Source of the DNA: Euglena gracilis
Taxonomy: Eukaryota
NCBI GenBank assembly: GCA_039621445.1
Contig: CP154954.1
Location: 31,458,012-31,522,011, forward strand
DNA: 64,000 bases
Reading direction: 5' to 3'
Both the position numbers and the translations under genes were made by a program. This document shows, in pieces, positions 2,038 through 47,713 of the stretch; position 1 is the first letter of the stretch; each line of letters starts with the position of its first letter. The notes under the pieces are model-generated. The model worked only from the letters and a program-made list of their open reading frames with translations. It had not been told where the DNA came from and did no database searches.

Positions 2038-2409
2038 AGCTGAAGGGGTGGCAGTTGGGGTCCCACTCGGCGTGGCGGACGGTGTCCCGGTGGGCGTCGC
2101 CGATGGGGTGCTGGTGGGGGTGCCAGACGGCGTTGCGGAGGGCGTGCCGGTTGGGGTAGCTGAGGGCGTCATTGTTGGTGTGCCAGAGGGCGTCGCGGAC
2201 GGGGTGCCGGTGGGCGTGGCGGACGGTGTGGCGGAAGGCGTGCCGGTGGGCGTGGCTGATGGGGTGGCGGTGGGCGTGCCGGAAGGGGTGGCGGTTGGAG
2301 TGGCGGTTGGGGTGGCGGATGGGGTGGTGGTGGGGGTGCCAGACGGCGTGGCGGAGGGCGTGCCGGTCGGCGTCGCGGACGGTGTGGCGGAGGGCGTGCC
2401 AGTTGGGGT
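2038..2409 (-). CDS. Gene 1 exon 22 (gene continues beyond left edge)
   Basis: 372 nt tandem copy; followed by intron start ACC-CAGGACGGAGCCCC. Confidence 0.85.
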
Positions 2410-22300: not shown

Positions 22301-25300
22301 ATGCACCGTCAACACACAAGGCAACCAAATTGGCATCCAACCAGGCGGTGACATTAACTCCAGCAAAAACTTTGGCCACGGCAGCTTTAACAGATTGTGC
22401 ATCTCGCCCTTCACCAAGTATTTCCTCGACACCAACAACAAACTGGGTAAATGTCTTTTGGCTGAAAATCCGGGCTGTCACGGAGACCCATTGACGGCCG
22501 GCCTCCGTCACCTCATCGATCATCACTGCCCGCGCCGTTGCCAGCGCCCACAGCTTGCGTGTGTGCTCCCTGGATGCATCAGCAAGATGCTTCAGGACCA
22601 CTGGGGTGTAGCGAGAAGCGTAGCGCAGATCATAATCCACCCCATTGGCCTGCTGCAACTCCAACAAAGGTCGGAGTTTGGTGTAGCTCAAACCATTCCT
22701 TGCCATGAACAGAACTGTCCGAAATAACACCTTTGCCTTTGGAATCACTGATGCTGGTAAGGAAATCATGGCCTGGGATAAAGATGTGTTCATTGAATTC
22801 ACCATTCCAACAGCAGCAACGTGATATGATCCATCCTCGTGGTTCTTGACATTCCGATAAAAAAACAATTTGGTGGGCAGCATGAGGGCGTTCTTTTTTT
22901 CCCCCCGCCACAAACTTTGGGATGTTGTCTGAAAGCATGGCACACAGAGCACCACATTCCCACAGCTGGATCATGCTGGAGCCACGGACGACCATTTTGC
23001 CAATTACTTTGGAATATTTTTGCTTTCATTGGCCTGTCACGGCCAGGCAATTTCAATTTCTTTCTGGGTGGGACATTGGAATCTCCAGGGGGCGATTGAG
23101 GGCTGTCGCTCTCCATGTCCTCCTCCGATCCCGCCTGGTTGTTGTCCTCGCTCCGCACCGGCGCAGAAGAAAAAGCAAGAGACATTTGCTTCATTGCTGT
23201 GAGGAGAGACTGAGATACACAGGGATACACAAAAATTTTTTTGGTGATACACAGGAATACACAATTTTTTTTTTGGCGATACACATGGATACACAATTTT
23301 TTTTTTGGTGATACACAGGATACACAAAAATTTTTTTCGGCGATACACACTAAGGAGAGGTCTGGTCCCGGTTGGGGTGGTTGCAGGGGCAGAGCTTCAA
23401 GGAACACACTATAACTCTCCCAGCGCACAAATGGCACATAACGTTCAACAGCACTCACCTCTGTTAAATTCTTGATGCTCTCTCTCCCCCCTCCCCGAAA
23501 TCTTTGCCCCTTGTGCAAGCGGATTTGCTGCACGATGATTGTATGGGTGTACTCGTGTCTTTCCATTTGCAAGGAACTCACTTTTGTTGCCAGTGTTCAT
23601 GTTGTCCTCGTTTTGAAAATACCCCAGAAAATTGTCCTCAACTTGATGCTCGCTGTCGGGAAGAGAATGCCATCACCCTCTTCCAGGATCCTTGGGCCTT
23701 GGGCCCTCCAATACACAAAGTATAAGGTAACAAATTGGGCAAAGCTGAGGAGGGGGTGACAATTGTACACTTGGGTAAATGGAAAATGAAATTTCTATTT
23801 GCATTGAAGTACATTTTTGAGTACTTTGAAAGCATGTGTAAACCCAAAGAGAAACTCATACAAATGTGTGTGTGGAATTAATGACCTCCCCCCCCCTTGT
23901 CCAACGACCACTAATGTTCGTCTCTGACCGGGGGGGGGCAGTCGCTAAAATGGCCAATGTTCGTCTCCGACCAGGGGGGTGGTCGTTAGACAAGCGGGGT
24001 GGACCCCAAATCGGAGAAAAATTTGCCATAGATGGGGGCATATGGCCATTTTTGGGCTGTTTTTGGCCATTTATGCTATTTCTTGACTACGGTTGGCCAC
24101 TTTTGGCCATTTTTGGACATTTTTGGGGCACTTTTGGGAATTTTTAGGCATTTTTGACCGCTCTTTGCCATGTTTGGTCGCTTTTGGCCACTTTTGGCAA
24201 CTGTTGGCCACACTTTGGCCCCCTTTGCCCATCTTTGGCCACTTTAGGCTGTTTTTGGTTACTTTTGGCCATTTTTGCCGTATTTTTGCTATTTTCGGCA
24301 ACTTTTTGGGCACTTTTGGCCATCCTTTGCCCATTTTAGGCCATTTTGGGCTATTGTTGACTGTTTTTAGCCAACCTTTAGCAATTTTGGCCGAACCAAC
24401 ATCGTACACAAAAAGATCGTCTCTGACCGGGGGGGGGGGGGGGGTTGTTAGACAAGCCAGGTCGTTGGACAAGGGGGGGAGGGGGGGAGGTATATTAATT
24501 TTTTGTGCGTTGCAGAATAAACGGGGCAGGGGGCAGAGAATTGTCTGGCATAGAGAGAGGGGTGACGTTTTCAGCGGGTGACAAATCAGCCAGAACGGGA
24601 ATCGCAGTGGTCTGCCCTGGAGGTTCAGCAGATGTTTCGAAGGGACTCAAACATGTTCACGGATCGACCTTAACCCCCGAAATTTTCTTCCCCGACTCCT
24701 CGGAAACCGAGCCTCCTCCGATGGTCATGGGAATGACAATAACAAAGCAAACAAGACCAATGTATGGCAAAGGCAAGACCTTTCCTTCAACCACTTCACC
24801 CACTCCATGGTGGCATTCGGGGAAGGGGAAAATGAGAAAAATGGAAAGAAGTTGCCAGATTTCCTTTGAATTGCCAATCAGGTTTAGAATAGGGGGGGGG
24901 GGGCGATCAGGGCAGATGGCTCTGCCCTGGGAGGCGGACGGTGTGGAGGTTGGCGTGCCGGTTGGGGTTGAAGAAGGGGTGCCGGTCGGGGTCCCGGATG
25001 GGGTGGAAGTGGGGGTGCCGGACGGTGTGCCCGACGGGGTGCCCGTCGGCGTGTCAGAAGGGGTGGCGGTTGGTGTCCCAGTCGGGGTGGCTGCAGTGGC
25101 AGGGCCCACAGGGCCATACAATTTTTTTTAACTGACCCCTTACTGGGGGGATCACTTCCATTCTTCCAAAAAACAGTCACTCACTTTTTTCGGAAAACCA
25201 GTCAGTCACTGCCCCCCCTTGGGGTGGTCGGTCACTCTGAAATCCAAGGGAAGTTTGACCACAAACGGGGAAAAAAGGCCAAAAAATTGCTGGTCGCTTG

Positions 25301-28300
25301 GTCACTTTGAACTTTAGTGTTTTTTTTTCAACCCCCCCCCGGGAGGAGGGGGTCCAAAACAAAAAAAACCAGTCAGTCAACTCTGAAAAAAACCAGTCAC
25401 CCAGCCTTGGGGGGGGGGGTCGGCCAGTGATTAAATGATTGTATGTGCAGGGCTCTGTTTGGTGGAAAAGTCCACAGCAGTCCTTCCTACCCTGCTGACC
25501 GGAAGTTGTCACAGCGAGTGTGAGCCTGGGGCAACTTCCTGGGGAGGCCCTGCAGCGGACTTCCCATGGCAGCTGTACAGGCCCCAAGGTGGCTGCTTCC
25601 CGGGGCAGGCGACAATCTCACGGAAATGACAAATTCCCTGGGGGGTGGGAGGGACGGAGATGACAAAGCGAGGAGATGAACAAGAATGAAAAGGCAGAAC
25701 AAAGGCAGGCGTCCTTTGCCAGTGGCGGAAAGGCTCTGCACTGGACAGTGGAGGGGGTGGTCGTGGGCGTGCCGGTTGGCGTGGAGGAGGGCGTGCCGGT
25801 GGGGGTTGCGGACGGCGTGCCGGTGGGGGTGCCGGACGGTGTGGCGGAGGGCGTGTGCGTCGCCGTGGCGGACGGCGTGGAGGAGGGCGTGCCAGTGGGG
25901 GTCGCGGACGGTGTGCCCGTAGGCGTGCCGGTGGGTGTACTGGACGGTGTGCCGGTGGGCGTGCCGGAGGGCAGGGCCAGAGTTGCATTCAAAGCCTGGG
26001 GATCTGCAGTCAACTTGAATGTGACCAACCCCTGGGGGGGGGGGCAGCTGACTGCCCCCCCCCCGAGGTGGGGTCCACCACATCTCAAAATTCAGCCTGC
26101 CTCCAGTGCCTCAGTGCCTGTTGGAGAGAACAATGCTGAAACCCAGGGGGAAATGCAGGGAATGGCGTTCTCATTCAACAAACTGCAAAGGTTCTGTTTT
26201 GGGGAAGCAAAAAGTTCTCTTCCCCAAAAGTTTCACTGCAGAAAGCAAACCCCCAAAAATGCCCCAAGAAATGGGACTCCCTGGAAGGGGCCCTCAGGCG
26301 GGGTGTCAATTAATGGGGGGGAGGGGGGTGGTCCCGGACCCTTCCCCTGGGGGGGGGGTAGACCCCCCGGGGAATTAACCTGGCGCGAAGCGCTGGAATT
26401 TCTTCGGGGGGTTCAAAAAATCTAAAAATGTGGTTTCAGGTGATTTTTTTCGCAAAATTGACAAAAAAACAGCTGGTAAAAGCATAAGTTTTCCGGCCAA
26501 AGTGCCAGGATTTCTTTTGGTTCCAGGGAGGTCCCCGACCCCCCCCCCTCCTCAGGGGGGGAGGTGGCCCGGGCCTCCCTCTCCACCCTCCACCTGTACC
26601 CCCCCTTGTCCAACGATCGTCTCCGACCGGGGTGGGTGGTCGCTAAAAAGGCCAATGTTCGTCTCTGACCAAGGGGGGGGGGTCGTTAGACAGGGGGGGG
26701 GGGGTTGGACCGCAGGTCGGCAAAAAAAGTTGGCCACAGATAGGGGTACATGCCATATTGGGCTGTGTTGGTCATTTTAGGCATTTTTTTTGGCAACTTT
26801 TGGCCAGCTTTACCACTTTATGCCATTTCTGGCCATTTTCGCCATTTATTTTTACCATTTTGGGAAAATTTTACCAACTTTCAACAAACTTTTTCCCGTT
26901 TGTCACAATCTCGCACGCCGACATCAATTTTAGTCATTCTGGGTTATTTGGAACCATTTTTTTGGAGTTATGCCGTTTTGGGCATTCTCAGCCAATTTAT
27001 GGTAATCATCACAACAAATTACAAAAAAAAAGATTCTCCGAAATACACAAAGCAGAAAGGCCATAAAATGACTCCCACAATGATTGAACCATTGTATTCA
27101 AAAGAAATCACATCTGACCAGGGGGGGGGGGCGTTGGACAAGGGGGCGGGATGTACAAACCCAACGTTCACTTAATACCCTGCCTTCAGGCCCAGACTGG
27201 CTAACTTAGGTTCTTCATAGATGCCACCCTCAATTATTTCCCCAAAAATTCTGGGGAAGGGAGTTGGACAACTCCAGTCCTGCCCAGAAAGATGGCACGA
27301 TGGGAAGTTCCCGGGGTATAATGGCTAGCTGTGCAGTGCCTATCTACACCGCCGGGAAAGTGTGTTCTGAAACCCAGTTAATTGACTGACCAGTGAACTC
27401 TCTGACATGTTCTTTTGGGACCTTTTCTCCATATCTTGTACCGACTGTCCTGTCTCCTAGCGATTTTTTTTGCGAATTTTCACCTTTTTTGTTGAAAAAA
27501 GCCTAAATACAAGGCTAAAAATAAACTGGGAACGTTCCTTTCAGATTCTGATAACAAATCAGGGTGCTTGTTAACGACCCCCCCCCCGGGGGGGACCTCC
27601 GAGCGAAAATTTCATTGCGGCATCTAACTTGGCCCTTGGCAAGTCTACAGTTTTCAGTGATGAGGTGGAGTAATTCGAAAATGCACCTGTTTTGCCTCAA
27701 ATCATATTTTGGGGACAGCTTATGGATAACAGGCAGGAATGAGAACACCAAAAAGGAAACCGTGCGAAAACAACCGGAACAAACTGTTGGTCCAGCTCAG
27801 AGGCTGGGAAATTTGGGCTGGCTGGAAAAAGGCTGCTGGTTGACCCCCCCTTCCCCCAAGGGGTCCCGAACTGGAACTGGGCCCGACCTGGGGTCGAACC
27901 GGGTACCAAAAAAAATCGAAATTGCAAAAATGTCCAAAAAATGCCAATTCTGCAAAATATCGATTTTTTTGACATCAAGTTTGCCCTTTTCAGCCCTGTT
28001 TCGACCTATTTTTGCCCATTCTCGGCCCATTTTCGGCCCATTTTTCGCCCATTTTGCATCCCAATTAGCGAAAATTCCGTTACCGTCCAGCCGCCCTTCT
28101 GGAAAACTCGTTGATGGGGGGATCCGAGGCTGGAAGGAGGCTGCTGGCTGGAAAAAAGGCTGCTGGCTGGAAAAAGGCGGCTGGCTGGCTGACCCCCCCC
28201 CCGGGCGGTGGGGTCAAATTTTCTTAAGCTACGCCCTGTGACAAATACGTTCTGTATCTGTGGGAGTTTCGCCTGTTTTGTTCTGACCTGACCTCGGAAA

Positions 28301-31300
28301 CAGTCTCCAGGGATCCTCACACGTCTGTGTTGGCCGAGGCTAAAATGCATCCGTGATTTTCCATGATTTTCCGTGATTTTCCGTGATTTTCCGTGATTTT
28401 CCTGTTTCCAGAAAAGGTCAAAAGCCACATTCCATTTTGCACCGGAACCATATTTAGGCGGTTGTGGCAGCAGTTCATTTCACCACATTATGGTCCTGGA
28501 GATCCCCCAGGGGATTTGCACCCCTGAGGCCTATGAGAGGACTCCCCGCCTCGCAGCAAGAAAAGAAAAGGCGAACAGTACCGGAGGCTAATGTCTGCCT
28601 TACTCCTTAAGCCTTGTGAAAGCGTTCCTCGACGTCCCCGTTATGAAACATGCAGATTGCTGCTTGCCTCAAACTTGATCCCATTCGCTGCCTGTTCCTT
28701 GTGTCACTCAGGCCTGAAAATGGAAATGGGAGGCATGGAAAGAAAAAAAAAACAGCTGCCAGAAAGGGTTTTCATATTTTTTCATATTTCCTCCTCGGTC
28801 CCACTTCCTCTTCTTTGCAGCCTTGGCACCACACCATTGCTTAGCGACCTCTGGGGGGAGGGGGGTCACTTTCCACTCTGGAAAAACCATGTTCTCATCG
28901 GACGATTTGGCACTGTCCAAAGACGATGAATCCCTCTCGTCATCTGACACACAAATGTCTTGTTTGGAAATTCATGGAAAAAAGTCCAAAAAAATTCAGG
29001 TGCCTTCGGCGCCAGGCCAGCCACTTTTCATTTTCGGGATTTGAAAAAACAAGTCAGTCACCCCTCTCTGGGGTGGGGTGGGACAGGTGTCAAGCAACGA
29101 TATGCTTGGCACCTTGCTGTGCCGTTGAACTGTCAGCATCCGGACATGAAAGCTCTGAATTGGACGACATTGTCTGTTTGGAAAAGCAGAGAATGTGCAA
29201 AGCATCCCATTAAAATGCATCTGCACAAACAAAGCACATTCAAAAAATCACCCAAAATTTTTTCCAAACCCTCCGCCTCATCCGTGAATTTCCGTGATTT
29301 TTCGTGATTTCCGTGAAAATGGCCTTCCGCCCATTTCCGTGATCCTCTGTGAATTTCCGTGAATTTCCTTTTCAGGACGTGCGAGGATCCCTGCAGTTTC
29401 CTGGAAACAATTTCCTGCCTTTGTGCTTGTGACCTGTCTGGAGAAGCATCCCGAGGGGGTGTCGGCATGCATCCTGCCATCCTCTGCTCTCATCAAGGAC
29501 CTAAAAAGGGGGTATGCACTACATAGCAGCCCCCTCCTCCACACATGCGTGTCAGTCCGTCTCATCCTGTCTGCAACATCAGGAGTGGCAAATCCTCAGT
29601 AGATTTCTACCCCTCCCCCTCCACCCGCCAGGATGAGGGATGGGAGACCTCCCCTTCCCAGGGCTGTACAGGAAGGTCTGGGGGGGGGGGTCAACCTGGC
29701 CACCACAGCACCGCCCATGGAAAAATTCCTTGGTGCCGAAGGAAATTTTTGACCAAAAAATCATCGTGCAGCCCACCCTCCACGCCATAACTTCTGATCG
29801 TCATCCCAGAGGGTCGTTATCTCGTTGTAAGTACAGGGACGACAATTTTTAGCAGACAAAAACCCTTCTGCAATTTCAAAGCGTGATATTATATATTATA
29901 TATAATATAATATATTTATATATTACATTTAACATATATTGGAAAGAAACTGCATACCTCCCCCGGGAAACTGTCTCCAGAGAAGCAGCGAGTACAGAGG
30001 TTGGAGACAGGTCTCCATGGGGACCAGTCAGCAAGCACAGAAGAGGACAGATTCCCAGGCAGGTCCAAGGTCAGAGGGACAACGTTGACATTTTGATGGC
30101 GATTAAAATCTAGAAAAATGATTCACATATTTGTGATCAGCAGCCTGGAAAAAAAATGTCCTTAGCTTTTTTCAACCCAGGAAATTACCGTTTTTTTTAA
30201 AAAAAAATAAATGCAAATAATTCTCAAGAAATTGTCAGGAAAGCGGGTCCAAAGGTATCCAGAAGGACAGGTAAGGGGACAGAGGGTTGAGGACAGTTTC
30301 CTGTTCCCAGGGGGGCAGGGGGAGGGGGTAATCTTCTTTCCTTGACATGTGAAGTGTTCGATGGCCAAATTATTTCAAGCCAACCATTGTGCTCAAATAA
30401 TGCTCAATTAGTTCAACTGAAACCACCAAAATTGGGGTTTGTGGTGTTCCCTGTGTGGTGTTTGTAGTGCTCCCTGTTACAAGGAGTGGTACACCCCCCC
30501 TCTGTCGTCTGTTCTTGACACGTCAAAATACGGGGGGAATGCAGTTGACAGGGGGGATGTCATGGACACGCTGTGTTATGTGCACTGGACAAAAAAGAAA
30601 ATGGCATTTTGGGTGCGGGAAAAGTGCGGTGCGGGGGGGGGGGTGGAATCAACCAAGAACCTTCCAACATAGCGACACGCCCGTGCTGGATCGCTGGACT
30701 CACAACAGGGGGGCAGCCCTGGACGTATCGGTGGGCGTGCCGGTTGGCGTGGAGGAGGGTGTGCCGGTTGGCGTGGAGGAGGGTGTGCCGGTGGGGGTGT
30801 CGGATGGCGTGCCGGTGGGGGTGCCGGACGGTGTGGCAGACGGCGTGGAGGAGGGCGTGCCGGTGGGGGTGGGGGCAGGGGCTGAGCTGGCACGACCATG
30901 GCAGCAGCCTCACGCTAGTGGGCCCCGGGGGGGCACCAGTATGAGGAGGTTGTCCATCCATGATCCAAAAAAGCGTGATATGCGTACTCCGGGAATCTCT
31001 GCCCAACGGGAGTGGTTTTTTTTGAATCTTTCGCTGAGGGTGAGAATTGACGCCGAGTTCAAGGCCGAAATGCCCAACCCCAACTCCTTTCCTCCGAATA
31101 TGAAATGCAAGGTGCGAGATGCAACTCGTGCCTGTCCACGCTCCGCGCTTGAAAAACGTCCAATACTCTTTAAGGGGGATGCAAGGGGACCACTAATATG
31201 AGGCTGCCAGCATGGCTTCCAATCAGCCCATCGCTGCAAATGTCGGTGGATGCATCTCATTTGTTGCCATTAAAGGCTGTATGGGAAGGCCATGAGGGGG

Positions 31301-34300: not shown

Positions 34301-34525
34301 CAGGAGTGGTCTTGACACCGGCCCATTCTGATCCCGAAGAAGAACCCCCTCCCCAAAGTTTTGGCTCCTTGGGGGTCTTAAACAGTGGGACATAGAAGTC
34401 TGAGTGCGGTTTGTGTGTGTGTGGCTGCTGTCTGAACCATTGCCTGTGGCATTGTATTTTACTCCAATTGTCCTCAGGGCTCAAAGCTGACTCAATGCGA
34501 TGCACGCACTCACGCACGCACGCAT

Positions 34526-34580
<55 letters not shown>

Positions 34581-37500: not shown

Positions 37501-40500
37501 CTCCTGCCAAATATTAACGCCAGAGTCATTAGAATCCTGCCCAAAGAAAACACAGAACGCCGAATCTCCCCTCCTGTTTGGTTTGAAGGCAAGAAAGAGG
37601 GGGTGCTCATTTGGCCAAAAATATCAACAGCAAAAACGGAATAAACCTGGGGGCTCAGACAAGGGGAATCTGAATAAAAAAAAAACCTTCAATTTTTGCC
37701 GAAAAAAATTCCATTTTTGGGGATCCTTTTGGGGGGGAATTGCTGACATTATACGTTGGCTTCACTTTCAGTGTAAATTTTTATAATTTGAATTTGTTGA
37801 AAACAAAATCAAATTAAATTTTGGGTTTTTATAATTTAACTGTCCAAAGAGTGAAAAGAGCCTAACCCCCCCCCTTCTAAACCCCCAATTATAACCCCCC
37901 CCCCTGGGCCGACCAACCAAACCTTGACTTACAAGAGGAAGAAAAATGAAAACCGCCAAAGACGATTTTTTTCGGCCGCAAACCACCCAAAAACTGATTT
38001 TTTGGCAATTTATTCGAGACCAACCATCATCAAAAATACCATTTTTGACCATATTTGCCGAAAATTGGAGACATGGCGTAAAGTGGAGCCCCCACAGTAC
38101 CCCACAGTACCCCACAGTACCCCACACACCCCCCCACACACCCCCCCACACACCCCCCCACACACCCCCCCCACACATCCCCCCACACACCCCCCCACAC
38201 ACCCCCCCACACACCCCCCCCCCCCCCCCCACCCCCCCCCCCACACACCCCAACACACCCACCCCCACAACCCCCCCCACACACCCCCACACGCATACCC
38301 CCCCACACACCCCCCCACACCCCCAACACAACCCCCCACAACCCCACAACACCCCCACCCCCCCCCCACCCCACCACCCCCCACCCCCCCCCACCCACCC
38401 CCCCACACCCCCCCCCACACTCATGTTGACTGTGCGCAACTGTTCGGGTGTCATTTTTTTGACTTACTCGGCCTTCGGCCTCGTCGCGCCGCGGCCTTCG
38501 GCCGCGGCACGGGGGGGGGGGGGGGGGCGGCCCCCCCCCCCCCCCCCCCCGGACCCCCCCCCCCAGAACCAAAATAACATTATACCTTGTGTGTGCAAGG
38601 CAACGGAAAGAAAATCCACTTTGTTGGATTACAGTACCATGGGTGAGCAACAGCCTGATTCTTTTTTGAAACCCAAGTTGAATGCGCGACTGTTCGGGTG
38701 TCATTTTTTTTGACTTACTCGGCCTTCGGCCTCGTCGCGCCGCGGCCTTCGGCCGCGGCCCGGGGGGGGGGGGGGGGGCCCGCCCCCCCCCAAGCACACC
38801 CCCCAGAACCAAAATAACATTATCCCTTGTGTGTGCAAGGCAACGGAAAGAAAATCCATTTTCCTCAGATTTGGCACCCCCCACACACCCCACTCACACC
38901 CCCCCACACTACCCCCCCACCCCCCCCCTTCCACTCCCCCCCCCCCACACACCCCCCCACACCCCCCCCACACACCCCCCCACACACCCCCCCACACCCC
39001 CCCCACCCACCCCCCCCACCCCCCCCCACACATACCCCCCACAGTACCCCACACTTAAGTGTGGGGGCTCCACTTTATGCCATATGTCAAAAATTGCCAA
39101 TCTGGGGGGGGCTGAGGTCATTTTTGTGGGTCGAATTTTCACCAAAAATTCCTTGACTTATAAACCCCCAGACTTGTGACCAAACCAGATCCTATAAACC
39201 CCGGGGGGTTTATAAGTGGGGGGGTTGATTTTTAATATTTTTGTGCTCCTTTTGTTGAGAGACAAATTATCAATTCCTTCTGGTCAAATTTTATGAAAGA
39301 TTCCTATAAAAATAGATATGAGTATGCAAATATATTGATATATGGATATAGATATATAGTCACATGTGATACATATAGAAGATGTACCTCCTGGCCACCC
39401 CCTCCCGGTTAGGGGGTGACCTGAGGTTCTGGCACTGACCGTGGACGTTTTTCTCAGTGTCACCTTTTCTGACTTCCCTGCAGCGTCCCCGCAATGTCCG
39501 TGGTGGGTCGTGGAGTGCTTCTCCCTCCGCGATCTGGCGCATGTTCTCTCTCACCTGCATGGCACCACCTCCCTTGAGGTGTCTTACAGGTTCCATGTCC
39601 CAGTTGTTTGCGCCCGACCCTCCACCACGTGGACGGGGCCCAAGACAGTGGCAGTCGGCCGCAGCTAGCTTCCGGAACATGAGCTGCATGCCCGCTCACT
39701 GGGCAGCATGCAGTTTTCGCATGCCGTTTCGCCCCAAGCCGCTATGCGGGTCGGAGCACAGGAGGCCTGATTTGCAACCTGCGCGTGAACGATCTGCTAC
39801 GTGATCTGGTCGCGCGGTCAGGAGGAGGTTGGCCAGTTGATCCAGTGCAGGCAGTGGCAGCTGATGCATCCACCTTCACCAGGGCACCCCTGCCATGGGA
39901 GATGTTCTGCTCCTCCGGGATGGCGACCATGCAGCAAAAGTGGTGGATGAGACGGAGCTGGGCCGGCAGGCGCCGAACATAAGCGGTCCATCCACCGCCA
40001 TGGCCTGCTGACTGTCCGAGAGGGGCAGCGACGCTCGTACACACTCTTCGGGGCCATCCTGGATGGCGAGGCGCAGTGCTTCTGCCAACTCCCACGGTGC
40101 CACCAGACGGTAGGGCACTGCTGTGGGGTGTTCACGCGTACGAGGCGCTGTGCAGCCTTCAACATACAATCTCCAAAACCTGGCTCTGAAATCCTGGCTC
40201 CGCGCCAAAGGCAGCATTCTGGCGGTGGCACCGACCTGACTATGTCAGGGAATACAAATGGTTTGTGAACATTCGCGGCGATGACGGCTTCCTCCAGGAG
40301 CTGGGGGCCATCCGCTGGGCCAGCATGCAGGACTGACCCAACTGCCACCACCACACTTACTAGCCGGACACCATCCTAGCATCTCTTAGGGCTGTGAAGG
40401 CGGCATATCCTGTTCACCAGTCAGCATTCACGGTCAGTGCCAGAGGTTTAACCTTAGGAACCCCTGGCCGGGGGGGGGGGGGGGGGGGCCAGGTGGTACC

Positions 40501-40619
40501 TGTTGCAAACAGACAGACAGGCAGGCAGGCAGGCAGGCAGATACAAGGCAGGCAGACCAGACAGACAGACAGACAGACAGACAGACGGACGGACGGACGG
40601 ATGGACGGACGGACGGACG

Positions 40620-40650
<31 letters not shown>

Positions 40651-43600
40651 AGACAGACAGACGGACGGACGGGCGGGCGGACAAACAGACAGGCAGGCAG
40701 ACAGAGAGACGTGTATGTAAGTATGCATGTAGGCAGGTATGTATGTAGGCAGGTAGGGAGGTAGGTGGGTAGGAAGGTAGGTAGGTAGGTAGGTAGGTAG
40801 GTAGGTAGGTAGGTAGGTAGGTAGGTGGGTAGGTAGGTAGGTAGGTAGGTAGGTAGGAAGGTAAGTAGGTAGGTAGGAAGGAAGGAAGGAAGGAAGGTAG
40901 GTAAGGTAGGTAGGTGGGTGGGTAGGTAGGTAGGTAGGAAGGTAGGTAGGTAGAAGGAAGGAAGGTAGGTAGGTAGGTACGTAAGGAGGCAGGTAAGAAA
41001 GAAGGTGGGTAGGCAGGTATGTAGGTAGGTAGGGAGGGAGGGAGGTAATAGGGTGGGTGGATAGGAAGGTAAACCCCCAACCCAACCCTCAACCCTCCAA
41101 ATAACACCCCCCGGTGTGTTATTTGTTATTCGAACTGCGGCCCAGGGGGGGGGGGGGTGTTATTTGGGGGGGTATTTTTACATGGAACACCAAAAGAAAA
41201 CAGGGGGTGTGCTATTTAGGCACTCAAAATCGGCCCCCGAGGGGGGGTGTTGTTTGGGAGGGTGTTATTTGGGGGGGGGGGTTAGGCAGGTAGGTAGGTA
41301 GGCAGGTAAGCAGGCAGGCAGGTAGGGTTATATTCAGTAGTAAATCGGGAGGGGGTCATATTTGGGGAGGATATATTCGGGGGACGTTGCTGGAATTTAG
41401 AAGTAGCAGCAGGATTCTGGAGGCCCCCCTCCTGGGGGGAGGCCTTTGAATTTCCAGGGGGGGGGGGTATGGCGGCACCGGGGTCCGACTTCGGGGGAGA
41501 TCGGGTTATTGTTCGGGATAGGGCTAGGGTTACAACAGAATTTAGGCTGAATTTTGGTAAAATTCCGACAAAAGCGCACCCTAAGAGTCTTCCGAAGCAG
41601 GGACCTAACTTGCGACCTAACTCTGCCCTAAATAAGGCTGATTCTCGGCGTGCCGATCCTAACCCTGACCCTATTCCTAAAAATAAAGTGCCAATCATGA
41701 ATGTTTTCACAGAATGATTTGGGGGGCTTAAAAGTGGAGGGTTAGGTTTTGGGGGTTGTTTGAGAGGGACATAAAATGGCAAATCGCAATCTTCGCAACA
41801 ACTCGCAACCTTCAATAACGGCTCACTTTACTGGGAGAATCCCGTAGAAAAAGTGAGCAGCGGTCATGGAGGTGGTGGAGGTGATGGAGCTGCTCCGGGT
41901 GAACGTCCGGGTTGGGGTGGGTGTGGCAGTAGAGGAGCTTGTGATGCTGGTGGTCGTGGTGGGGCTGGCGGTGGCGGTCGTCGTGGACGTGATGGTGGCG
42001 CTGCGGGTGCGCGTGCCCGTGGAGGTCGCGGTGGTGGTGGGGGTGGCTGTAACTGTGGACGTGATGGTGGCGGTGCGGGTGGGGGTGCGTGTGCCTGTGG
42101 GTGTCGCAGTGGCGGTCGAGGTGGCAGTTGTTGTGGACGTTATGGTGGCAGTGCGGGTGCGGGTGGAGGTGCAGGTAGGAGTCGCCGTATTTGAGCGTGT
42201 CATGGTGGTGCTGGGGGTGCTGGTGGTGGTGCTGGTAGGAGTCGCTGTCAGAGGGTTTTTTTGAGATAGGAGAGTTGGTTACCATCTGTCCACCCCCCTG
42301 GAGAGGGGAAGTGTGCTCCAGGGATGTATGGGAAATCCTGAGATCGCCTCCTAACACAGACTGGGGGGGGGGGTCGGACACCCCTCCTATCCAGGGCGTT
42401 GCTTAAGGACCCCCGTGGGGGTTCACCTCAAGCTCAGAGGCTGGAAAATTTGGGCTTTTCTTTTTCTGAAATTTTTGTTATATATTACTTCTCATGTGAA
42501 AAAAAAACGTCCAAAAAATGTGCTTAAATGTGGGGGGAAACAGATTTTTGCAGAAGAAAAATTTTATCCATTTTTAGACCAAATGCACCCCTCCCAACCC
42601 ACACCCACACCACCTCCCTCAATGCTGACGGGCTTCCCAAACATCGCTGGGGGACCCAGTGAGGGGGTAAAAAGGTGGGGTCCAACCCCCTCCCAGTATC
42701 CAAAAGTTAAAAAGGTCTCTGGTCGCCGTATCTGAGGCCGTGAGGGTGGAACTGGGGGTGGTGGTGGAGGTTCGGGTGGGGGTCGCCGTCGTGGTGGGGG
42801 TGGCGGTCGACGTGGCACTTATGGTGGCGCTGCGGGTGAACGTGCCGGTTCTGGTGAAGGTGGCCGTCGTGGTGGGGGACGCCGTTGCGGTGGCGGTGGT
42901 GGTGGAGCTCGGGGTGAGCGTGCTCGTTCGAGTGGGGGTTGCCGTTCCGGTGGGGGTTGCTGTGGAGCTTGAGGTGGCGGTTGCCGTGGGGGTTATGGTA
43001 GCACTGCGGGTGAACGTGCGCGTCCTTGTGGGAGTGGCCGTGGCCGTGGTGGTGGACGTTCTGGTTCTGGTGGTGGTGGCACTGCAGGTGGACGTCCTGG
43101 TTCGGGTGGAGGTTGTGGTTGCAGTTGGGGTGGCGGTCGTTGTGGCTGTTAGGGTGGACGTCCGGCTGCGGGTGGAGGTGCTGGTCGGGGACGCCGTTCT
43201 TGGAGGCAGGGCCGGAGCCGCACCGTTCCGCAACTCGAAAATAGGAAGAAGCAACCCCCTCCTTCAGCTTGATCCTACAAACTGGGGGTTGGGAAATGGG
43301 GGGGAGGGGGTCACAACAGCAGGGTCCAAAGAGAAAAGCAACTCCCCGCTGACAGAACGAGCGTCCATCACATAAGCACCCTTCTGCAGGAAACTCAACC
43401 AGTCATTCAATGGAGACAAGACAATTTGTGGTTGCAGCTGACCTGAAAAAGCAAACTCCAGCATAAAAACAAAGCAAAGCGTCACATTTTCTCTCGACAT
43501 TTTTTTGCTCAAAAAAGCGCTGGCTCATACAGAATGAAGCAGCCAAAAAAAAAAGATACGCAATGTCCAGAACATGCCCCCCCAGCTAAAGGATCGATCC

Positions 43601-45399
43601 ACGACAGCATCCGACAAATGGGGAGGGGGGCGATCTCTCACTCAACAGGTAGTGGGCTTTGGGCATCACCACAATCAAGCAAATGCCAATTTTCGAACCC
43701 CTGAGTGTGCCGTCCGAAGCACTCAAAGGGTTCGTAAGCACCTCTGTGGGGGGAAAAGGTGGCAGGGGGACGGGCACCGCAACACACAGGCTGGACTCCT
43801 GGCCCAGCCCTGGCCGTCGGGGTTGCGGAGACAGTCGGCGAGTTGGTGGCAGTCTCCGATGCGGTGTCCGTTTCCGACGGGGTGGCGGTGGTGGTGGGCG
43901 TCGGAGTCGGGGTGGCTGTGACGGAATGGGTGAGGCCGGCGGAAGGGGGGTATTGGCTGAAGGCTTCAACTGCCCCTGCCGCCTGCCGCTCTCCACCCCG
44001 TCCCCAGCGACAACCGACGCCTACCGCCGCTTTCTGCGCGAGTTCGCACCCCTGTATCCATTGGCAACGTTGGGATTGGGCTGTGGGAGTGGCATTGAGA
44101 TGTGTTTGGGCCGCTGTGAGGCGCGTCGCCCGGTCAGCCCGATATGGTTTCCATGCGATGTTTTGCAGACTTGCGCATTTTGTGTTCAATTTGTTCAAAA
44201 TATTTCTTGAGAAACGTTCTCGATGGCAGTGCGAACAAAAGACCAAGTAATCTTAACGTAGTCTTAGGAAGAGACCACGTTGTAAGGATAAATTAAACCA
44301 AATGTGTCCAAAAATACAAACTGTGTGACAGAACTTGTGGACATCTCGTGATTCGTGTTGTTCCTCGGGGTCAAAGCAAACCATTTACTTTTTGGACGGT
44401 GGCATTTGTACCTTGCAATACCTCCAAATTTGATTAAATTTTTTTGAAAACAGATCTGTTCTCCGCTGTGGCGATTGCCCATTCTTTTCGCCCAGCATTG
44501 CTCCATGCCAGCATGCATGGGCCTAGACGGCCGATATTCGGCCTCCAAGGTACAAAATTCATTTTTGATAATTTGGGCAAAAATTATAAAAACCTTTCAA
44601 TAAAGTTTGTCCTCCGTAGTTGGAGGTTTGAGGATCAATGTGTTTTCTCTTGTTATTTTTGGTAAATTTTCTCTCAGATTGAGATGGACATGAAGCGTAA
44701 TGGGCTGTGTGTCCATGCTTGTGTGGCCTTGCATCCAGGTCTCTGGTGGGATTTCTCAAAGACCTCAGAGGGTCCAGCCAGCCAATAAGCCAGCTGAGGA
44801 GCTCGTGACTGGACCCCTCCCCCCAGAGTCCAGTGTGCTCAGGCGCATGCCGGGCAGGACTGACTGGCAGCAAAAACACCTCCCAATTTCGACTGGTTTG
44901 ACCTAAAAAGCAGCAAAAAAGGACCCCAAAAAATACCAATGCCGACCACTTTTCTAGACATATTTTTCGTCCAGAATTTATTTCGGAACCCCGGGGGCCG
45001 GGGGGGGGGGGGGCATTGGCAGCAGCTGGCTGAGCAAAAGGTGCTCGCTGGGGGCCTCCACCCCCTCCGGCCGCAGAAAATACCTGATCTTTTGGGCTTG
45101 GCTGCTGGGGGAGGCTGCTTGGTCATGAGAAAACTTTGCGGAAATATGAGCTCCGCAAAATGACCTTGAGGATCAAGGTCACTTCCGTGGTTGCAGATTG
45201 ACAATCCGATGTTTCCATCCGAATGCAATGCATACCGATGCAAAGCAGATGTGCTTGGCATATGCCCATGCACGATGAAGAGCCACAGGAATGTGCGGCC
45301 CCCCTCCCCTCCTCTCACGGCCATCGACGGAAGGGGCACACCTTCGGGGCCTGGCATCAGGCACAGCAGCAGGAGGAGCCACAGACTCCACCGCGGCAT
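2038..45399 (-). CDS. Gene 1 (whole model): secreted mucin-like Thr/Pro/Ser/Ala repeat glycoprotein; 22 exons in window, 3' end beyond left edge
   Basis: Exons 5'->3': 45342-45399, 44711-44742, 43816-44129, 42725-43201, 41866-42243, 36718-37045, 36309-36343, 35902-36111, 34719-34872, 34088-34168, 32263-32457, 30725-30870, 25747-25966, 24933-25088, 23368-23378, 16907-17264, 13359-13577, 11738-11953, 10025-10240, 8535-8906, 5296-5667, 2038-2409. Total 4920 nt; phases match at all junctions and the TPSA/TPTG repeat register is usually kept across them. N-terminal signal peptide [17 protein letters not shown]. Confidence 0.85.
5296..5667 (-). CDS. Gene 1 exon 21
   Basis: 372 nt tandem copy. Confidence 0.85.
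8535..8906 (-). CDS. Gene 1 exon 20
   Basis: 372 nt; one of three near-identical tandem copies. Confidence 0.85.
10025..10240 (-). CDS. Gene 1 exon 19
   Basis: 216 nt; CTG-CACCC| and |GCC-CAG. Confidence 0.85.
10338..10450. repeat. (TA)n microsatellite
   Basis: Direct reading. Confidence 0.95.
11738..11953 (-). CDS. Gene 1 exon 18
   Basis: 216 nt; near-identical to 10025-10240. Confidence 0.85.
13359..13577 (-). CDS. Gene 1 exon 17
   Basis: 219 nt; upstream intron ends pair over GGGCGCTGCAAA/TTTGCAGCGCCC. Confidence 0.85.
15388..15807. mobile_element. TIR element, TACCTCCCCCCCTTGTC family
   Basis: TACCTCCCCCCCCCTTGTCTAAG / CTTAGACAAGGGGGGGGGGGAGGTA inverted ends; internal AAAAGATGGGTAAGAACCGGGG repeats; exact termini uncertain. 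Confidence 0.7.
16907..17264 (-). CDS. Gene 1 exon 16
   Basis: 358 nt TPSA/TPTG repeats; begins inside the hAT TSD. Confidence 0.85.
17759..18950 (-). pseudogene. hAT transposase C-terminal part (dimerisation-like region, acidic linker, SAM-like domain), degenerate
   Basis: Resumes VAKKLCQEL after the [12 protein letters not shown] resembles the hAT LP.S.A..ER motif; RSSL...EAVRRW..RR; terminal [37 protein letters not shown] resembles SAM. Confidence 0.65.
18951..19464 (-). mobile_element. Putative 3' LTR of the chromovirus
   Basis: Polypurine tract AGAAAGGGGAG then TG at 19464; ends ...CATTTCA at 18951 where transposase sequence resumes; no second LTR available to confirm. Confidence 0.6.
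19833..21575 (-). mobile_element. Ty3/Gypsy chromovirus pol fragment: integrase (HHCC, DDE) + chromodomain
   Basis: 580-aa ORF with [37 protein letters not shown], and chromodomain [10 protein letters not shown]...[18 protein letters not shown]. Confidence 0.93.
21582..23194 (-). pseudogene. hAT transposase, N-terminal and catalytic part (ZnF_TTF, ZNF862/ZMYM1-like), frameshifted
   Basis: [27 protein letters not shown] zinc finger; IDEVT, VDGAS and CASH(CxxH) motifs; frameshifts in homopolymers near 22900 and 21970; truncated by LTR insertion. Confidence 0.9.
23368..23378 (-). CDS. Gene 1 exon 15: 11-nt microexon (ACC CCA ACC GG)
   Basis: Cut off from exon 16 by the hAT insertion; needed to restore [11 protein letters not shown] and the frame. 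Confidence 0.75.
23876..24500. mobile_element. TIR element, CCCCTTGTCCAACGACC family
   Basis: Inverted ends CCTCCCCCCCCCTTGTCCAACGACC / GGTCGTTGGACAAGGGGGGG..GAGG; TTTTGGCCA-rich interior; relative at ~26595-27156. Confidence 0.7.
24933..25088 (-). CDS. Gene 1 exon 14
   Basis: 156 nt; CTG-CAGCC| and |TCC-CAG. Confidence 0.85.
25747..25966 (-). CDS. Gene 1 exon 13
   Basis: 220 nt; CTG-CCCTC| and |GTC-CAG. Confidence 0.8.
30725..30870 (-). CDS. Gene 1 exon 12
   Basis: 146 nt TPSS/TPTG repeats; CTG-CCCCC| and |GTC-CAG. Confidence 0.82.
32263..32457 (-). CDS. Gene 1 exon 11
   Basis: 195 nt; CTA-CTCCC| and |GCC-CAG. Confidence 0.82.
32527..33013. mobile_element. hAT-type MITE nested in intron 32458-34087
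   Basis: TIR CAGGGTTGGATGGGAAGCC / GGCTTCCCGTCCAACCCTG; degenerate TSD CCCCCGGA/CCCCTGGG. Confidence 0.8.
34088..34168 (-). CDS. Gene 1 exon 10
   Basis: 81 nt [12 protein letters not shown]...; CTG-CGCCC| and |GTT-TAG. Confidence 0.8.
34500..34580. repeat. (CACG)n microsatellite
   Basis: Direct reading. Confidence 0.95.
34719..34872 (-). CDS. Gene 1 exon 9
   Basis: 154 nt; CAG-GCCCC| and |GCC-CAG. Confidence 0.8.
34918..35169. mobile_element. Older CAGG...CCTG MITE nested in intron 34873-35901
   Basis: CAGGCATCTTTTT / AAAAAGAATCCTG ends; TSD not recognisable; similar end near 10700-10720. Confidence 0.55.
35902..36111 (-). CDS. Gene 1 exon 8
   Basis: 210 nt, first TPSA repeats; phase 2 to phase 2. 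Confidence 0.8.
36309..36343 (-). CDS. Gene 1 exon 7 (35-nt, [11 protein letters not shown])
   Basis: Separated from exon 6 by a MITE with perfect 8-bp TSD; lower boundary could alternatively be 36324. Confidence 0.7.
36349..36714. mobile_element. hAT-type MITE forming nonconventional intron 36344-36717
   Basis: Perfect TSD ATCGGTGG (36341-36348; 36715-36722); TIR CATACAACTGCTTA / TAAGCAATTGCCTG; AAAACCAGTCAGTCACT motifs also at ~25170-25430. Confidence 0.9.
36718..37045 (-). CDS. Gene 1 exon 6
   Basis: 328 nt Thr-rich; GCG-GAAGC| and |GAT-CAG. Confidence 0.85.
38090..39055. repeat. C-rich (CACACCCCCC)n tracts flanking a duplicated ~175-bp hairpin-rich unit
   Basis: Unit CTGTTCGGGTGTCATTTTTTTGACTTACTCGGCCTTCGGCC...AGAAAATCCA at ~38440-38618 and ~38690-38858. 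Confidence 0.9.
40508..41065. repeat. Compound (GACA/GACG)n and (GTAG/GAAG)n microsatellite
   Basis: Direct reading; source of the spurious YLPT and QTDR ORFs. Confidence 0.95.
41866..42243 (-). CDS. Gene 1 exon 5
   Basis: 378 nt, [15 protein letters not shown] repeats; CTG-ACAGC| and |GAC-CGC. Confidence 0.85.
42725..43201 (-). CDS. Gene 1 exon 4 (Thr/Arg-rich repeats)
   Basis: 477 nt, phase 2 to phase 2; flanked by CTG-CCTCC| and |GAC-CAG. Confidence 0.85.
43816..44129 (-). CDS. Gene 1 exon 3 (ATRLTAAQ...[34 protein letters not shown])
   Basis: Open frame entering Thr-rich repeats; 3' junction AC|GGCCAGGGCTGG pairs with CCGGCCCTGCCTCC|; 5' boundary less certain. Confidence 0.7.
44711..44742 (-). 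CDS. Gene 1 exon 2 ([11 protein letters not shown]), boundaries tentative
   Basis: CCACCAG| acceptor in phase 1; downstream intron starts ACACAGCCCATTACG and pairs with CATATCGGGCTG near 44135; a longer exon starting near 44852 is an alternative. Confidence 0.45.
45342..45399 (-). CDS. Gene 1 exon 1 (signal peptide [19 protein letters not shown])
   Basis: Hydrophobic signal peptide; ends GAAG|GTGTGC (GTGTG donor); pyrimidine-rich ...CCTGCACAG 9 nt upstream of ATG. Confidence 0.75.
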
Positions 45400-45496: not shown

Positions 45497-45892
45497 CAGG
45501 GTTCGATATAAGGACAGGTGGGGGGGGGGGTCCGGACCCCCCCCTGCGGGCCAGGAGGGGGGGGGGGGGGGGGGGGGCACCCCCCCCCCACCTAAACAGG
45601 TGCGCGGTCTGGGTTTCAGAATTTCGGCCCGGCGCAAAGCGCCGGGCCGAAAATTTTTGACCCCCCAAAACGACCAAAAGTGCCATTTTTGGCACTTTTT
45701 GGGCAAAAATGTGCCAAAAATGCAAAAATTTTCGGCGCAAAGCGCCGGAGGAAAAAAATGACCCTTTTTGGGGGGGGTCCCGGGAACCCCCCCGAGGGTC
45801 GGTCCGGACCCCCCTGCGGGCCAGGGGGGGGGGGGGGGGGGGGGACACCCCCCCCACCTAAACCATGTACGCCCTCCTTATATCAAACCCTG
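45497..45892. mobile_element. hAT-type MITE (TIR CAGGGTTCGATATAAGGA), upstream of gene 1
   Basis: TIRs at both ends; perfect 8-bp TSD GGGGCAGC (45489-45496; 45893-45900). Confidence 0.93.
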
Positions 45893-47276: not shown

Positions 47277-47713
47277 CAGGGTTCGATATAAGGAGAGGGG
47301 GGGGGGGGTGGTCCGGACCCCCCCCCCTGCGGGCCGGGGGGGGGGGGGGGTGGGGGGGACACCCCCCCCCACCTAAACAGTGGTGCGGTCAGGGTGACCG
47401 ATTTTCGGCCCGGCGCGAAGCGCCGGGCCGAAAATATTTGACCCCCCAAAAGGACCAAAAGTGCCATTTTGGGCACTTTTTTGGGCAAAAATTGGCCAAA
47501 AATGCAAAAAATTCTCAGCGCGAAGCGCCGGAGGAAAAAATTGACCCTTTTTGGGGGGGGGGGGTCCCGGGTACCCCCCGAGGGTCGGTCCGGACCCCCC
47601 TTGCAGGTGGGGGGGGGGGGCCGGACCCCCCCTGCGGGCCAGGAGGGGGGGGGGGGGTGGGGGGGACACCCCCCCCACCTAAACCATGTACGCCCTCCTT
47701 ATATCGAACCCTG
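47277..47713. mobile_element. hAT-type MITE, same family as 45497-45892
   Basis: Same TIR and interior; perfect 8-bp TSD GGAATGGT (47269-47276; 47714-47721). Confidence 0.93.

Follow-up and report, generated by a model that had tools for sequence, protein, structure and literature searches.

Putative nonconventional introns at a mucin-like locus of Euglena gracilis as candidate hAT-type insertions bordered by split 8-bp duplications

The origin of the nonconventional introns of euglenids, and the reason why their borders follow a rule of 3 nt on one side and 5 nt on the other, have been open questions for decades, and both are raised by a locus in the window analyzed here, a stretch of 64,000 nucleotides of Euglena gracilis DNA. 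The minus strand, roughly from 16.9 to 44 kb, probably carries one or two mucin-like genes with Thr/Pro-rich repeat exons; two runs of exons each have a terminal hydrophobic tail and a stop codon, and two genes may therefore be present. What lies between the exons matches the anatomy of euglenid nonconventional introns, which is also the anatomy of hAT-type DNA transposons. In the portions of the literature considered here (Milanowski 2014, PMC3935182; PMC4770533; Nomura 2025, PMC12501133; PMC11282704), euglenid nonconventional introns share with those of this locus a CAG at +4 to +6 and a CTG at -8 to -6, a pairing stem, 3-nt and 5-nt spacers, a downstream exon that begins with a purine, and junctions that often carry direct repeats ("slidable" introns), and a MITE-like origin is already in print. 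Splicing is established for those introns, whereas the present locus is known from its sequence and its introns are putative. According to the parts of PMC12501133 consulted, the 3-nt and 5(-6)-nt spacers are required for splicing, as is the pairing of the intron ends, which was shown by knock-ins, and nonconventional introns make up ~70% of the introns in E. agilis.

Eleven introns were curated by reading frame and by the signature N3-CDG...CH'G-N5, with borders drawn from sequence only, and two exon-exon gaps were left out of the set. One of the eleven, 17265-23367, encloses the 6.1-kb element described below, and the others are listed here with the identity of their donor and acceptor 8-mers.

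36344-36717, minus strand: putative intron or MITE, 374 nt; TSD 8/8; 3' motif ATG, not CTG
42244-42724, minus strand: putative nonconventional intron or MITE, 481 nt; CAG...CTG ends, TSD 7/8
34873-35901, minus strand: putative intron, 1,029 nt; CTG...CAG configuration, TSD-like 7/8, short stem
25095-25746, minus strand: putative intron of CAG(T/G)GC type; 6/8
23379-24932, minus strand: putative intron of "CAGGGC" type, 1,554 nt; 5/8
30871-32262, minus strand: putative intron of CAGGGC type; 4/8; nested MITE inside
34169-34718, minus strand: putative intron of CAGGGC type; 4/8
25973-30724, minus strand: putative intron of CAGGGC type; 3/8; alternative acceptor 25967
36133-36323, minus strand: putative intron, 191 nt; 3/8; weak stem
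43202-43815, minus strand: putative intron of CAGGGC type; 3/8; stem of 10-12 bp

CDG follows a 3-nt spacer, at +4 to +6, in 11/11 of them (10 CAG and 1 CTG), an anchor that was also used for the borders, and the complementary CH'G at -8 to -6, followed by the 5-nt spacer, is present in all except 36344-36717 (10/11), which has ATG. Every downstream exon opens with a purine (11/11), the acceptor at 25973 of intron 25973-30724 having been preferred over that at 25967 by this same purine rule. At 42244-42724, an open Thr-rich frame spans the site once the element and one TSD copy are taken out. The intron 23379-24932 has paralogues in 30871-32262 and in the units at 2-9 kb. The upper border of 43202-43815 is also the coordinate at which the span marked by the first-pass annotation ends. 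A search for copies of the introns within the window gave short partial matches only, a comparison of the 3.2-kb tandem units for filled and empty sites gave no indel of at least 14 bp, an Rfam search gave no match, and Pfam gave no domain in nine other long ORFs of the window.

The first-pass annotation had compared the last 5 nt of the exon plus the first 3 nt of the intron with the last 5 nt of the intron plus the first 3 nt of the next exon, and had proposed that the two 8-mers are the copies of an 8-bp TSD split 5|3. The five scores that it gave are reproduced on the minus (coding) strand, namely 8/8 for 17265-23367 and 36344-36717, 7/8 for 42244-42724 and 34873-35901, and 5/8 for 23379-24932, and they are not reproduced when read on the plus strand; its coordinates run from low to high on the plus strand, while the gene and the 8-mers lie on the minus strand. 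The excess of identity at 5|3 over a null that it had predicted is borne out for the 11 curated introns of this locus. Donor and acceptor agree in 58/88 cells at -5 to +3 (10, 6, 5, 7, 8, 6, 7 and 9 matches per position, n = 11), versus 22/77 at -12 to -6 (2, 4, 4, 4, 6, 0 and 2) and 26/99 at +4 to +12 (5, 2, 0, 1, 6, 6, 3, 2 and 1), so that the block of identity ends sharply at -5 and +3, with the caveat that the CAG/CTG anchor on which this test is defined had also served to choose the borders. The mean score is 5.27 for the 11 introns versus 3.38 for 110 cross-pairs of donors and acceptors (permutation p = 1e-4), and scores of at least 7/8 are reached by 4/11 true pairs versus 0/110 cross-pairs (p = 3.5e-4).

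In principle, a similarity of this kind could be an artefact of the composition of the repeat, which is C-rich and codon-periodic: the exons are rich in ACC, CCN and TCC, the cross-pair mean is itself 3.38 of 8, and 7/110 cross-pairs reach 6/8. The exons being C-rich repeats, the 7/8 at 34873-35901 is weaker evidence. As an account of the whole pattern, however, composition is disfavoured and has only a very slight chance of being correct, in view of the lack of any cross-pair at 7/8 or above, the sharp edges of the block, and the occurrence of 8-bp repeats around CAG...CTG elements in parts of the window that are neither repetitive nor coding.

The reading as split TSDs draws further support from the intron 17265-23367, whose contents are as follows.

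17270-23364, minus strand: defective transposon of predicted hAT type, 6,095 bp, in a Thr/Pro-repeat exon, with TIRs, a TSD and remains of a transposase
17262-17269, no strand assigned: left TSD copy, 8 bp, GTCCCGGT on the plus strand
23365-23372, no strand assigned: right copy of the same 8-bp TSD
21581-23272, minus strand: hAT-like transposase gene, N-terminal and core pieces, disrupted by frame changes and one internal stop, located by tblastn
17780-18980, minus strand: hAT-like transposase gene, C-terminal pieces, located by tblastn
18962-21573, minus strand: insertion nested in the transposon, 2,612 bp, with an integrase (rve) and chromodomain ORF at 19833-21587

The TIRs of this element are 23 bp long and perfect, subterminal GATACACA repeats stand at each end, and its borders conform to the code N3-CAG...CTG-N5|purine on the minus strand. 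A paralogous, uninterrupted "empty site" for the insertion is found at 30843-30878. The nested ORF matches the Pfam chromodomain (Chromo, E = 4e-13) and, at 29.3 bits and thus under the 32.6-bit cut-off, rve (E = 1e-6), and among PDB sequences Ty3 Gag-Pol matches it best (E = 3e-16). In run X1, one contig connects 18961 with 21574, which implies other copies without the nested insertion, and internally deleted as well as insertion-free copies of the element were seen in a DNA run.

The ORFs of the element are 45-57% identical to a family of proteins of 719-922 aa, and tblastn with two members, P0004 and P0002, places HSPs of 47-57% identity over 322-330 aa on frames -1 and -3 of 21581-23272. 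The copy in the window is broken by frame changes, a stop and a deletion of ~57 aa, and the stretch with the family's conserved C-E-R motif (the region of the candidate catalytic E) is unaligned. Pfam assigned no family to the transposase ORFs at the curated cut-off and gave nothing for five relatives (P0001, P0002, P0004, P0005 and P0008), so that neither a C-terminal hAT dimerisation domain nor an N-terminal BED-type zinc finger was matched by profile, and sequence searches of the PDB returned no transposase; membership of the hAT superfamily therefore rests on the predicted fold of a homologue rather than on the protein of the window. That homologue is P0004, which was aligned with 7 relatives and to which the window ORF is 47% identical over 330 aa. 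Its AlphaFold model has a mean pLDDT of 59, with core blocks mostly at 60-93. The best 12 Foldseek matches of the model are all Hermes chains (E = 1e-10 to 3e-8), and in VIA residues 196-745 of the model align to 114-609 of Hermes with Z of 19.8-22.5 and rmsd of 4.7-5.7 over 389-402 residues, the next fold having Z of ~10. The modeled homologue thus appears to have the RNase H-like core with an all-helical insertion domain of the Hermes-like fold, and the family alignment contains invariant D260, D329 and E709 in conserved motifs, which are candidates for the catalytic D, D and E. Judged by this model, 17270-23364 is predicted to be a hAT-type transposon. With Hermes and Ac/Ds it has in common an 8-bp TSD, short TIRs beginning with CAG, short repeats near the termini, derivatives with internal deletions, and a transposase family predicted to fold like Hermes. 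It departs from them in that the copy in the window, into which an integrase-chromodomain insertion is nested, is defective, and in that its proposed removal from RNA would follow a code other than that of the spliceosome and would not depend on cryptic GT-AG sites. Splicing of maize Ds as a de novo intron is represented in the part of PMC3935182 considered here by an entry in the reference list.

Elements with the same ends and duplications are present elsewhere in the window. A seeded, complexity-filtered scan yielded 157 CAG...CTG pairs with complementarity of at least 11/14, and flanking 8-mers identical at 7/8 or better occur 5 times at offset 0, versus 0, 1, 0, 0, 0, 0, 0, 1, 0, 0, 0 and 0 times at control offsets 1-12 (2 in total). 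Among other terminal trinucleotides scanned in the window, none had adjacent 8-bp direct repeats, which were confined to CAG...CTG; a TIR scan open to all terminal trinucleotides, with neither seed nor complexity filter, was dominated by poly-G/C and AT repeats. The flanking repeat is exactly 8 bp at 17270-23364, where the flanks also match trivially at 2 bp, and at 45497-45892, 47277-47713 and 55927-56359, and it is 7/8 at 31520-31764 and 42249-42721. Four of these elements have not been introduced above.

31520-31764, no strand assigned: CAG...CTG MITE, 245 bp; TSD 7/8; nested in intron 30871-32262
45497-45892, no strand assigned: CAGGG...CCCTG MITE, 396 bp; exact 8-bp TSD
47277-47713, no strand assigned: MITE, 437 bp, of the same family as 45497-45892; non-coding context
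55927-56359, no strand assigned: CAGGG...CCCTG MITE, 433 bp; exact 8-bp TSD; non-coding context

The TIRs of the MITEs are complementary at 12-14 of 14 positions, and every one starts with CAG. The terminal consensus of hAT TIRs is YARNG, and at the fifth base CAGGG and CAGAG fit it and CAGAC and CAGGC do not. The MITE at 47277-47713 is 88-94% identical to that at 45497-45892, and the two have different exact 8-bp TSDs; by their sequences they appear to be independent insertions of one family.

These elements also bear on the possibility that the 8-nt repeats are footprints of double-strand-break repair during intron gain rather than TSDs made by a transposase. In the part of PMC4770533 (Milanowski 2016) considered here, an 8-nt direct repeat of a gapC intron that had been newly gained is attributed to break repair, and a transposase is absent from most of the introns of this locus. 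Against such an origin, the inverted repeats that lie between the direct repeats all begin with CAG, the direct repeats are exactly 8 bp long in four elements, one element holds a transposase gene with a predicted Hermes fold, one MITE family is present twice with different TSDs, and deletion derivatives occur in a DNA run. We consequently regard break repair as improbable here and transposition as the preferred source of the repeats.

The same introns had been taken in the first-pass annotation as a continuum of ages, from fresh insertion to decayed intron, within one gene. This part of the interpretation is not supported as it stands. The correlations of TSD identity with TIR identity (rho = 0.50, p = 0.12, n = 11) and with stem energy (rho = -0.34, p = 0.31, n = 11) are non-significant, and the seven lower-scoring introns exceed the null by no more than a narrow margin (p = 0.07). 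Many of the low scorers are tandem paralogues: introns of the "CAGGGC" type occupy homologous exon positions and are related by tandem duplication of exon and intron, and from their sequences they would represent a single old event that was copied, not serial insertions. In place of a continuum, the locus probably holds two classes. The younger one consists of insertions into the interior of exons, with 7-8/8 identity, including the 6.1-kb defective element of predicted hAT type, and the old class of one CAGGGC intron copied with its exon by tandem duplication, with 3-6/8.

Taken together, the introns on the minus strand are probably hAT-type insertions of these two classes, from which the nonconventional code would remove the element along with one TSD copy. 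The 3+5=8 arithmetic of the first-pass annotation is thereby retained and made more specific, in that CAG and CTG would be the termini of the TIRs and the adjoining 3 and 5 nt the two halves of the 8-bp TSD, and its proposal of a hAT insertion spliced within its TSD fits the splicing code in the consulted parts of PMC12501133. The process can be considered as follows. A hAT-type transposase would cut the target with an 8-bp stagger, as established hAT behavior suggests, and leave an element that starts with CAG and ends with CTG between two 8-bp TSD copies, an arrangement seen directly in five or six elements. In the transcript, the ends of the element would pair and form the structure that the nonconventional splicing machinery requires. 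From the arithmetic of the spacers, we infer that the machinery would cut 3 nt upstream of CAG and 5 nt downstream of CTG, so that the element and 8 nt, that is, one TSD copy, would be removed. The frame that existed before insertion would be restored in either orientation if position 6 of the TSD is a purine. Later, the constraint on the two intronic TSD halves would be one of length only, and the halves could drift while the direct repeat fades. Such a model would explain the common pyrimidine|purine pattern at both junctions. A broader and more tentative idea, which we would rate at somewhat less than an even chance, is that most euglenid nonconventional introns descend from hAT insertions and that the asymmetric 3/5 rule exists because 3+5 equals the hAT duplication, the machinery having co-evolved with this one superfamily as an RNA-level "precise excision," so that any insertion of a hAT element in an exon would be almost neutral when it arises.

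With CAG...CTG elements bounded by exact 8-bp duplications, the window offers a concrete candidate that makes the hypothesis of origin testable, and one candidate element combines a transposase gene of predicted Hermes fold, a position inside an exon and borders compatible with the code. A transposon origin with "TSD-like" repeats has already been published, and the present result refines that hypothesis without adding a new kind of system: in the consulted parts of the review PMC11282704, CAG/CTG are labeled TIR and the junction repeats "TSD-like." The duplication length of 8 = 3+5, the name of a superfamily and a transposase-bearing element are absent from the parts of PMC3935182, PMC4770533, PMC12501133 and PMC11282704 considered; a count of words gave 0 for both "hAT" and "duplication" in PMC12501133 and 0 for "hat" in PMC11282704. 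In the literature searched, neither the assignment to hAT nor the arithmetic of 3+5=8 was found, and the supplements of PMC12501133 and PMC4770533 may hold a distribution of repeat lengths. The introner elements of Micromonas, dinoflagellates and Fritillaria are comparable. As described in the portion of PMC11282704 covered here, they depend on the spliceosome, have TSDs of 3-5 nt and co-opt one splice site from the TSD; they resemble the present elements in being DNA transposons bounded by TIRs and TSDs that can be removed from mRNA at birth and whose TSD helps to form the splice borders, and they differ in that both cuts proposed here lie inside TSD copies and keep a constant distance from the ends of the TIRs.

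In another explanation, the elements are ordinary unspliced transposon insertions with TIRs and 8-bp TSDs in an unexpressed or decaying mucin-like tandem array, and the "introns" are an illusion that comes from the frame staying open across repeat exons. Reads or contigs of runs X1, X15, X21 and X24, which comprise raw reads from two RNA runs together with Logan contigs from a DNA run and from a run that may be RNA, were placed on 16801-36800. Within that interval, the RNA depth of the exons is near zero (~0-0.3) in the two raw RNA runs, of each of which ~5% of the reads was sampled, and no host exon-exon joint is present among the 15 listed of 879 joints; coverage this sparse is compatible with splicing as well as with its absence. 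For 34000-43900, no RNA run with matching sequence was listed. A comparison of exon 41829-42242 with longer proteins in search of a junction gave 4 matches, all of them low-complexity and Thr-rich, and none to a transcript-derived protein. The 3' ATG of 36344-36717 violates the published code, and similar MITEs occur in non-coding DNA. On the other hand, borders of the form N3-CDG...CH'G-N5|R allow an in-frame closure of 11/11 gaps between exon blocks, with complementary ends in 10/11, and the old "CAGGGC" introns retain strong stems (down to -37 kcal/mol) despite diverged interiors, which suggests selection for splicing. We therefore consider unspliced insertion unlikely, though a good deal less so than break repair, and favor hAT-type insertions removed by the nonconventional code. 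In the same data, word depth reaches 3e5-9e5 in some intron bins versus 1e2-5e2 in exon bins, a depth that is distinct from copy number and was given no weight here, and the high-depth intron bins include G/C homopolymers and nested repeats.

Read on the minus strand, which is the coding strand in the window, the five 8-mer scores of the first-pass annotation, each comparing 5 nt of exon plus 3 nt of intron at the donor with 5 nt of intron plus 3 nt of exon at the acceptor, were all reproduced exactly; on the plus strand the comparisons do not reproduce.

17265-23367, minus strand, putative intron, TSD score 8/8
36344-36717, minus strand, putative intron, TSD score 8/8
42244-42724, minus strand, putative intron, TSD score 7/8
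34873-35901, minus strand, putative intron, TSD score 7/8
23379-24932, minus strand, putative intron, TSD score 5/8

Two criteria alone, an unbroken reading frame and the published N3-CDG...CH'G-N5 signature, served to curate eleven putative introns. The purine rule decided one acceptor (25973 over 25967), and the set leaves aside two exon-to-exon gaps, at about 41.8-37.1 kb and about 34.1-32.5 kb. Donor-versus-acceptor matches, out of 11 at each position, were 2, 4, 4, 4, 6, 0 and 2 at positions -12 to -6 (22/77 cells), 10, 6, 5, 7, 8, 6, 7 and 9 at -5 to +3 (58/88), and 5, 2, 0, 1, 6, 6, 3, 2 and 1 at +4 to +12 (26/99). Because identity is confined to -5 to +3, the edges of the block are exactly those predicted by a TSD split 5|3. 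Against a shuffled-pair null (110 cross-pairs, mean 3.38/8, none at 7 or more), these 11 introns show an excess, with a mean of 5.27 (permutation p 1e-4) and 4/11 scoring at least 7 (permutation p 3.5e-4). A second test used no intron model but 157 CAG...CTG pairs from the whole window with terminal complementarity of at least 11/14. Flanking 8-mers matching at 7/8 or better were directly adjacent in 5 cases, and at displacements of 1-12 nt numbered 0, 1, 0, 0, 0, 0, 0, 1, 0, 0, 0 and 0; no other terminal trinucleotide in the window scan behaved like CAG...CTG. Four elements have an exact flanking repeat of 8 bp; one of them, 17270-23364, which lies within the first putative intron listed, also matches trivially at 2 bp. 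The 5|3 observation is real and significant.

CAG and CTG mark the ends of the TIRs. The two 8-bp TSD copies each have an intronic half, one being the 3 nt that precede CAG and the other the 5 nt that follow CTG. In 17270-23364 the TIR is perfect over 23 bp, and a short subterminal repeat forms arrays at both ends. Its ORFs, on the minus strand, are fragments of a single protein, with which the full-length relatives, P0001-P0008 (719-922 aa), share 45-57% identity. Pfam and PDB sequence searches with these ORFs and their relatives yielded no transposase identification, and an AlphaFold model of P0004 was built from an 8-sequence alignment (mean pLDDT 59, core blocks mostly 60-93). Its 12 best Foldseek matches were all Hermes transposase (E 1e-10 to 3e-8), followed by P element (E 1e-2). 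In VIA-align the Hermes match (Z 19.8-22.5, 389-402 residues) covers the RNase H-like core and the helical insertion domain, and Z was about 10 against bare integrase cores. The copy in 17270-23364 is defective: its frames alternate, it contains an internal stop codon and it lacks about 57 aa, and a conserved C-terminal stretch with an invariant E lies outside the alignment. For young elements the hAT/TSD reading is well supported.

The flanks of 17270-23364 plus one TSD copy form a 36-nt site that matches the uninterrupted paralogous exon start at 30843-30878 with 5 mismatches, and those at 2382, 5640 and 8879 with 7 each. The element is an insertion and no ancient intron. Other elements in the window carry similar duplications.

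45497-45892, MITE, exact 8-bp TSD
47277-47713, MITE, exact 8-bp TSD differing from that of 45497-45892 (the two MITEs 88-94% identical)
55927-56359, MITE, exact 8-bp TSD
31520-31764, MITE nested in an intron, TSD 7/8

Two of these MITEs lie in sequence with no open frame, which shows that insertion by this family is not limited to exons.

Splicing of such structures in Euglena has been shown to require spacers of 3 nt and 5(-6) nt and a purine opening the next exon, the spacer sequence being otherwise unconstrained (PMC12501133). The minus-strand borders of 17270-23364, N3-CAG...CTG-N5 and then a purine, fit this code. The intron signature is also the ground on which the DNA was taken as euglenid. 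Because 3+5=8, the putative cut would take out the element with one TSD copy, and the pre-insertion mRNA would be regained whichever orientation the element has. The TSD model would also explain why both junctions have a like pyrimidine|purine pattern, reported as common to them (PMC4770533, PMC11282704). The hAT/TSD reading gives the published code a neat rationale. Within 16801-36800 the exons had an RNA depth of about 0-0.3, and the 15 joints listed, out of 879, included no host exon-exon joint. The TIR/8-bp TSD anatomy and the borders are those of a hAT insertion that would be spliced within its TSD.

A MITE-like origin of nonconventional introns was put forward in 2014 (PMC3935182). The 8-nt direct repeat of a newly gained gapC intron was ascribed to break repair in 2016 (PMC4770533), a 2024 review termed CAG/CTG a TIR and the junction repeats "TSD-like" (PMC11282704), and in 2025 the code paper, with 84.4% "slidable" introns (PMC12501133), and a diplonemid paper (PMC12621601) again suspected MITEs. 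In the texts searched no hAT assignment and no transposase-bearing element for such introns turned up, nor a statement of an 8 = 3+5 duplication, although supplements may hold repeat-length data. What is added here to the proposed MITE-like origin and "TSD-like" repeats is the hAT type and 8 = 3+5. The locus is a concrete new case of a known hypothesis, which it usefully sharpens, but no new kind of system.

The age continuum from fresh insertion to decayed intron within one gene, also suggested by the annotation, found no support. TSD identity correlated significantly with neither TIR identity (rho 0.50, p 0.12) nor stem energy (rho -0.34, p 0.31), and rho with length was 0.07 (n=11 throughout); the seven introns below 7/8 had a mean of 4.0, compared with 3.38 in the null (p 0.07). 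"CAG(G/T)GC...GCCCTG" termini are common to six low-scoring introns, which occupy homologous positions at the ends of the repeat exons and have homologous downstream exon starts. These six are one old intron multiplied by tandem exon+intron duplication. Rather than a continuum, the introns form two classes, young insertions in exon interiors and an old intron that has been duplicated.

That the whole exon span is one gene is also doubtful. Thr/Pro-rich repeat exons lie in runs on the minus strand with non-coding stretches between them, one type from ~16.9 to 36.2 kb and an xTxT type from 36.7 to 44 kb. Two exon runs, with their ends near 41.8 kb and 16.9 kb, finish in a similar hydrophobic tail and stop codon.

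41826-41870, minus strand, exon-run tail ...GILPVK, then TGA
16859-16900, minus strand, exon-run tail ...VVPVK, then TGA

The tails share a CCAGT(A/T)AAGTGA context and could be the GPI-signal-like C-termini of two separate mucin-like genes, or a common conventional GT donor. An ORF with a signal-peptide-like stretch (about 45250-45330, minus strand) immediately precedes the Thr-rich exons in the direction of transcription and may represent exon 1 of the 44-41.8 kb gene. At 1760-8923 a ~3.2 kb unit is tandemly duplicated, its copies 94-96% identical with no indels of at least 14 bp between them. It holds more Thr/Pro-repeat exons, and their introns likewise begin with "CAGGAC/CAGGGC".

The hAT-like element itself carries an insertion.

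18962-21573, 2,612-bp insertion nested in 17270-23364, with a Ty3-type integrase (rve) + chromodomain ORF

This ORF is open (584 aa) and Ty3-like by PDB sequence match, and the nested segment lacks a reverse transcriptase. Word depth in one DNA run is several-fold higher here than over the rest of the element, and the segment is therefore probably part of a more abundant retroelement family. DNA-run contigs contain the joint 18961 to 21574, representing element copies without the insertion, and internally deleted forms, one joining 18250 to 22978 with 3 filler bases and another joining 17478 to 21896 with a single filler base, which look like Ds-like derivatives; such copies are as expected for a cut-and-paste family. 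The joint 18250 to 22978 is also present in one raw RNA read.

The large gap that runs from the 41.8 kb exon block to the one at 37.1 kb contains a ~0.7 kb CAGG/TACC-type microsatellite (40414-41160) with three open minus-strand frames ("YLPTYLPT..."). Long inverted repeats of G14-20 facing C14-20 recur in intronic DNA (38500-38800, 32550-32980, 36370-36690), where RNA and DNA reads stop in loose poly-G and word depth is inflated.
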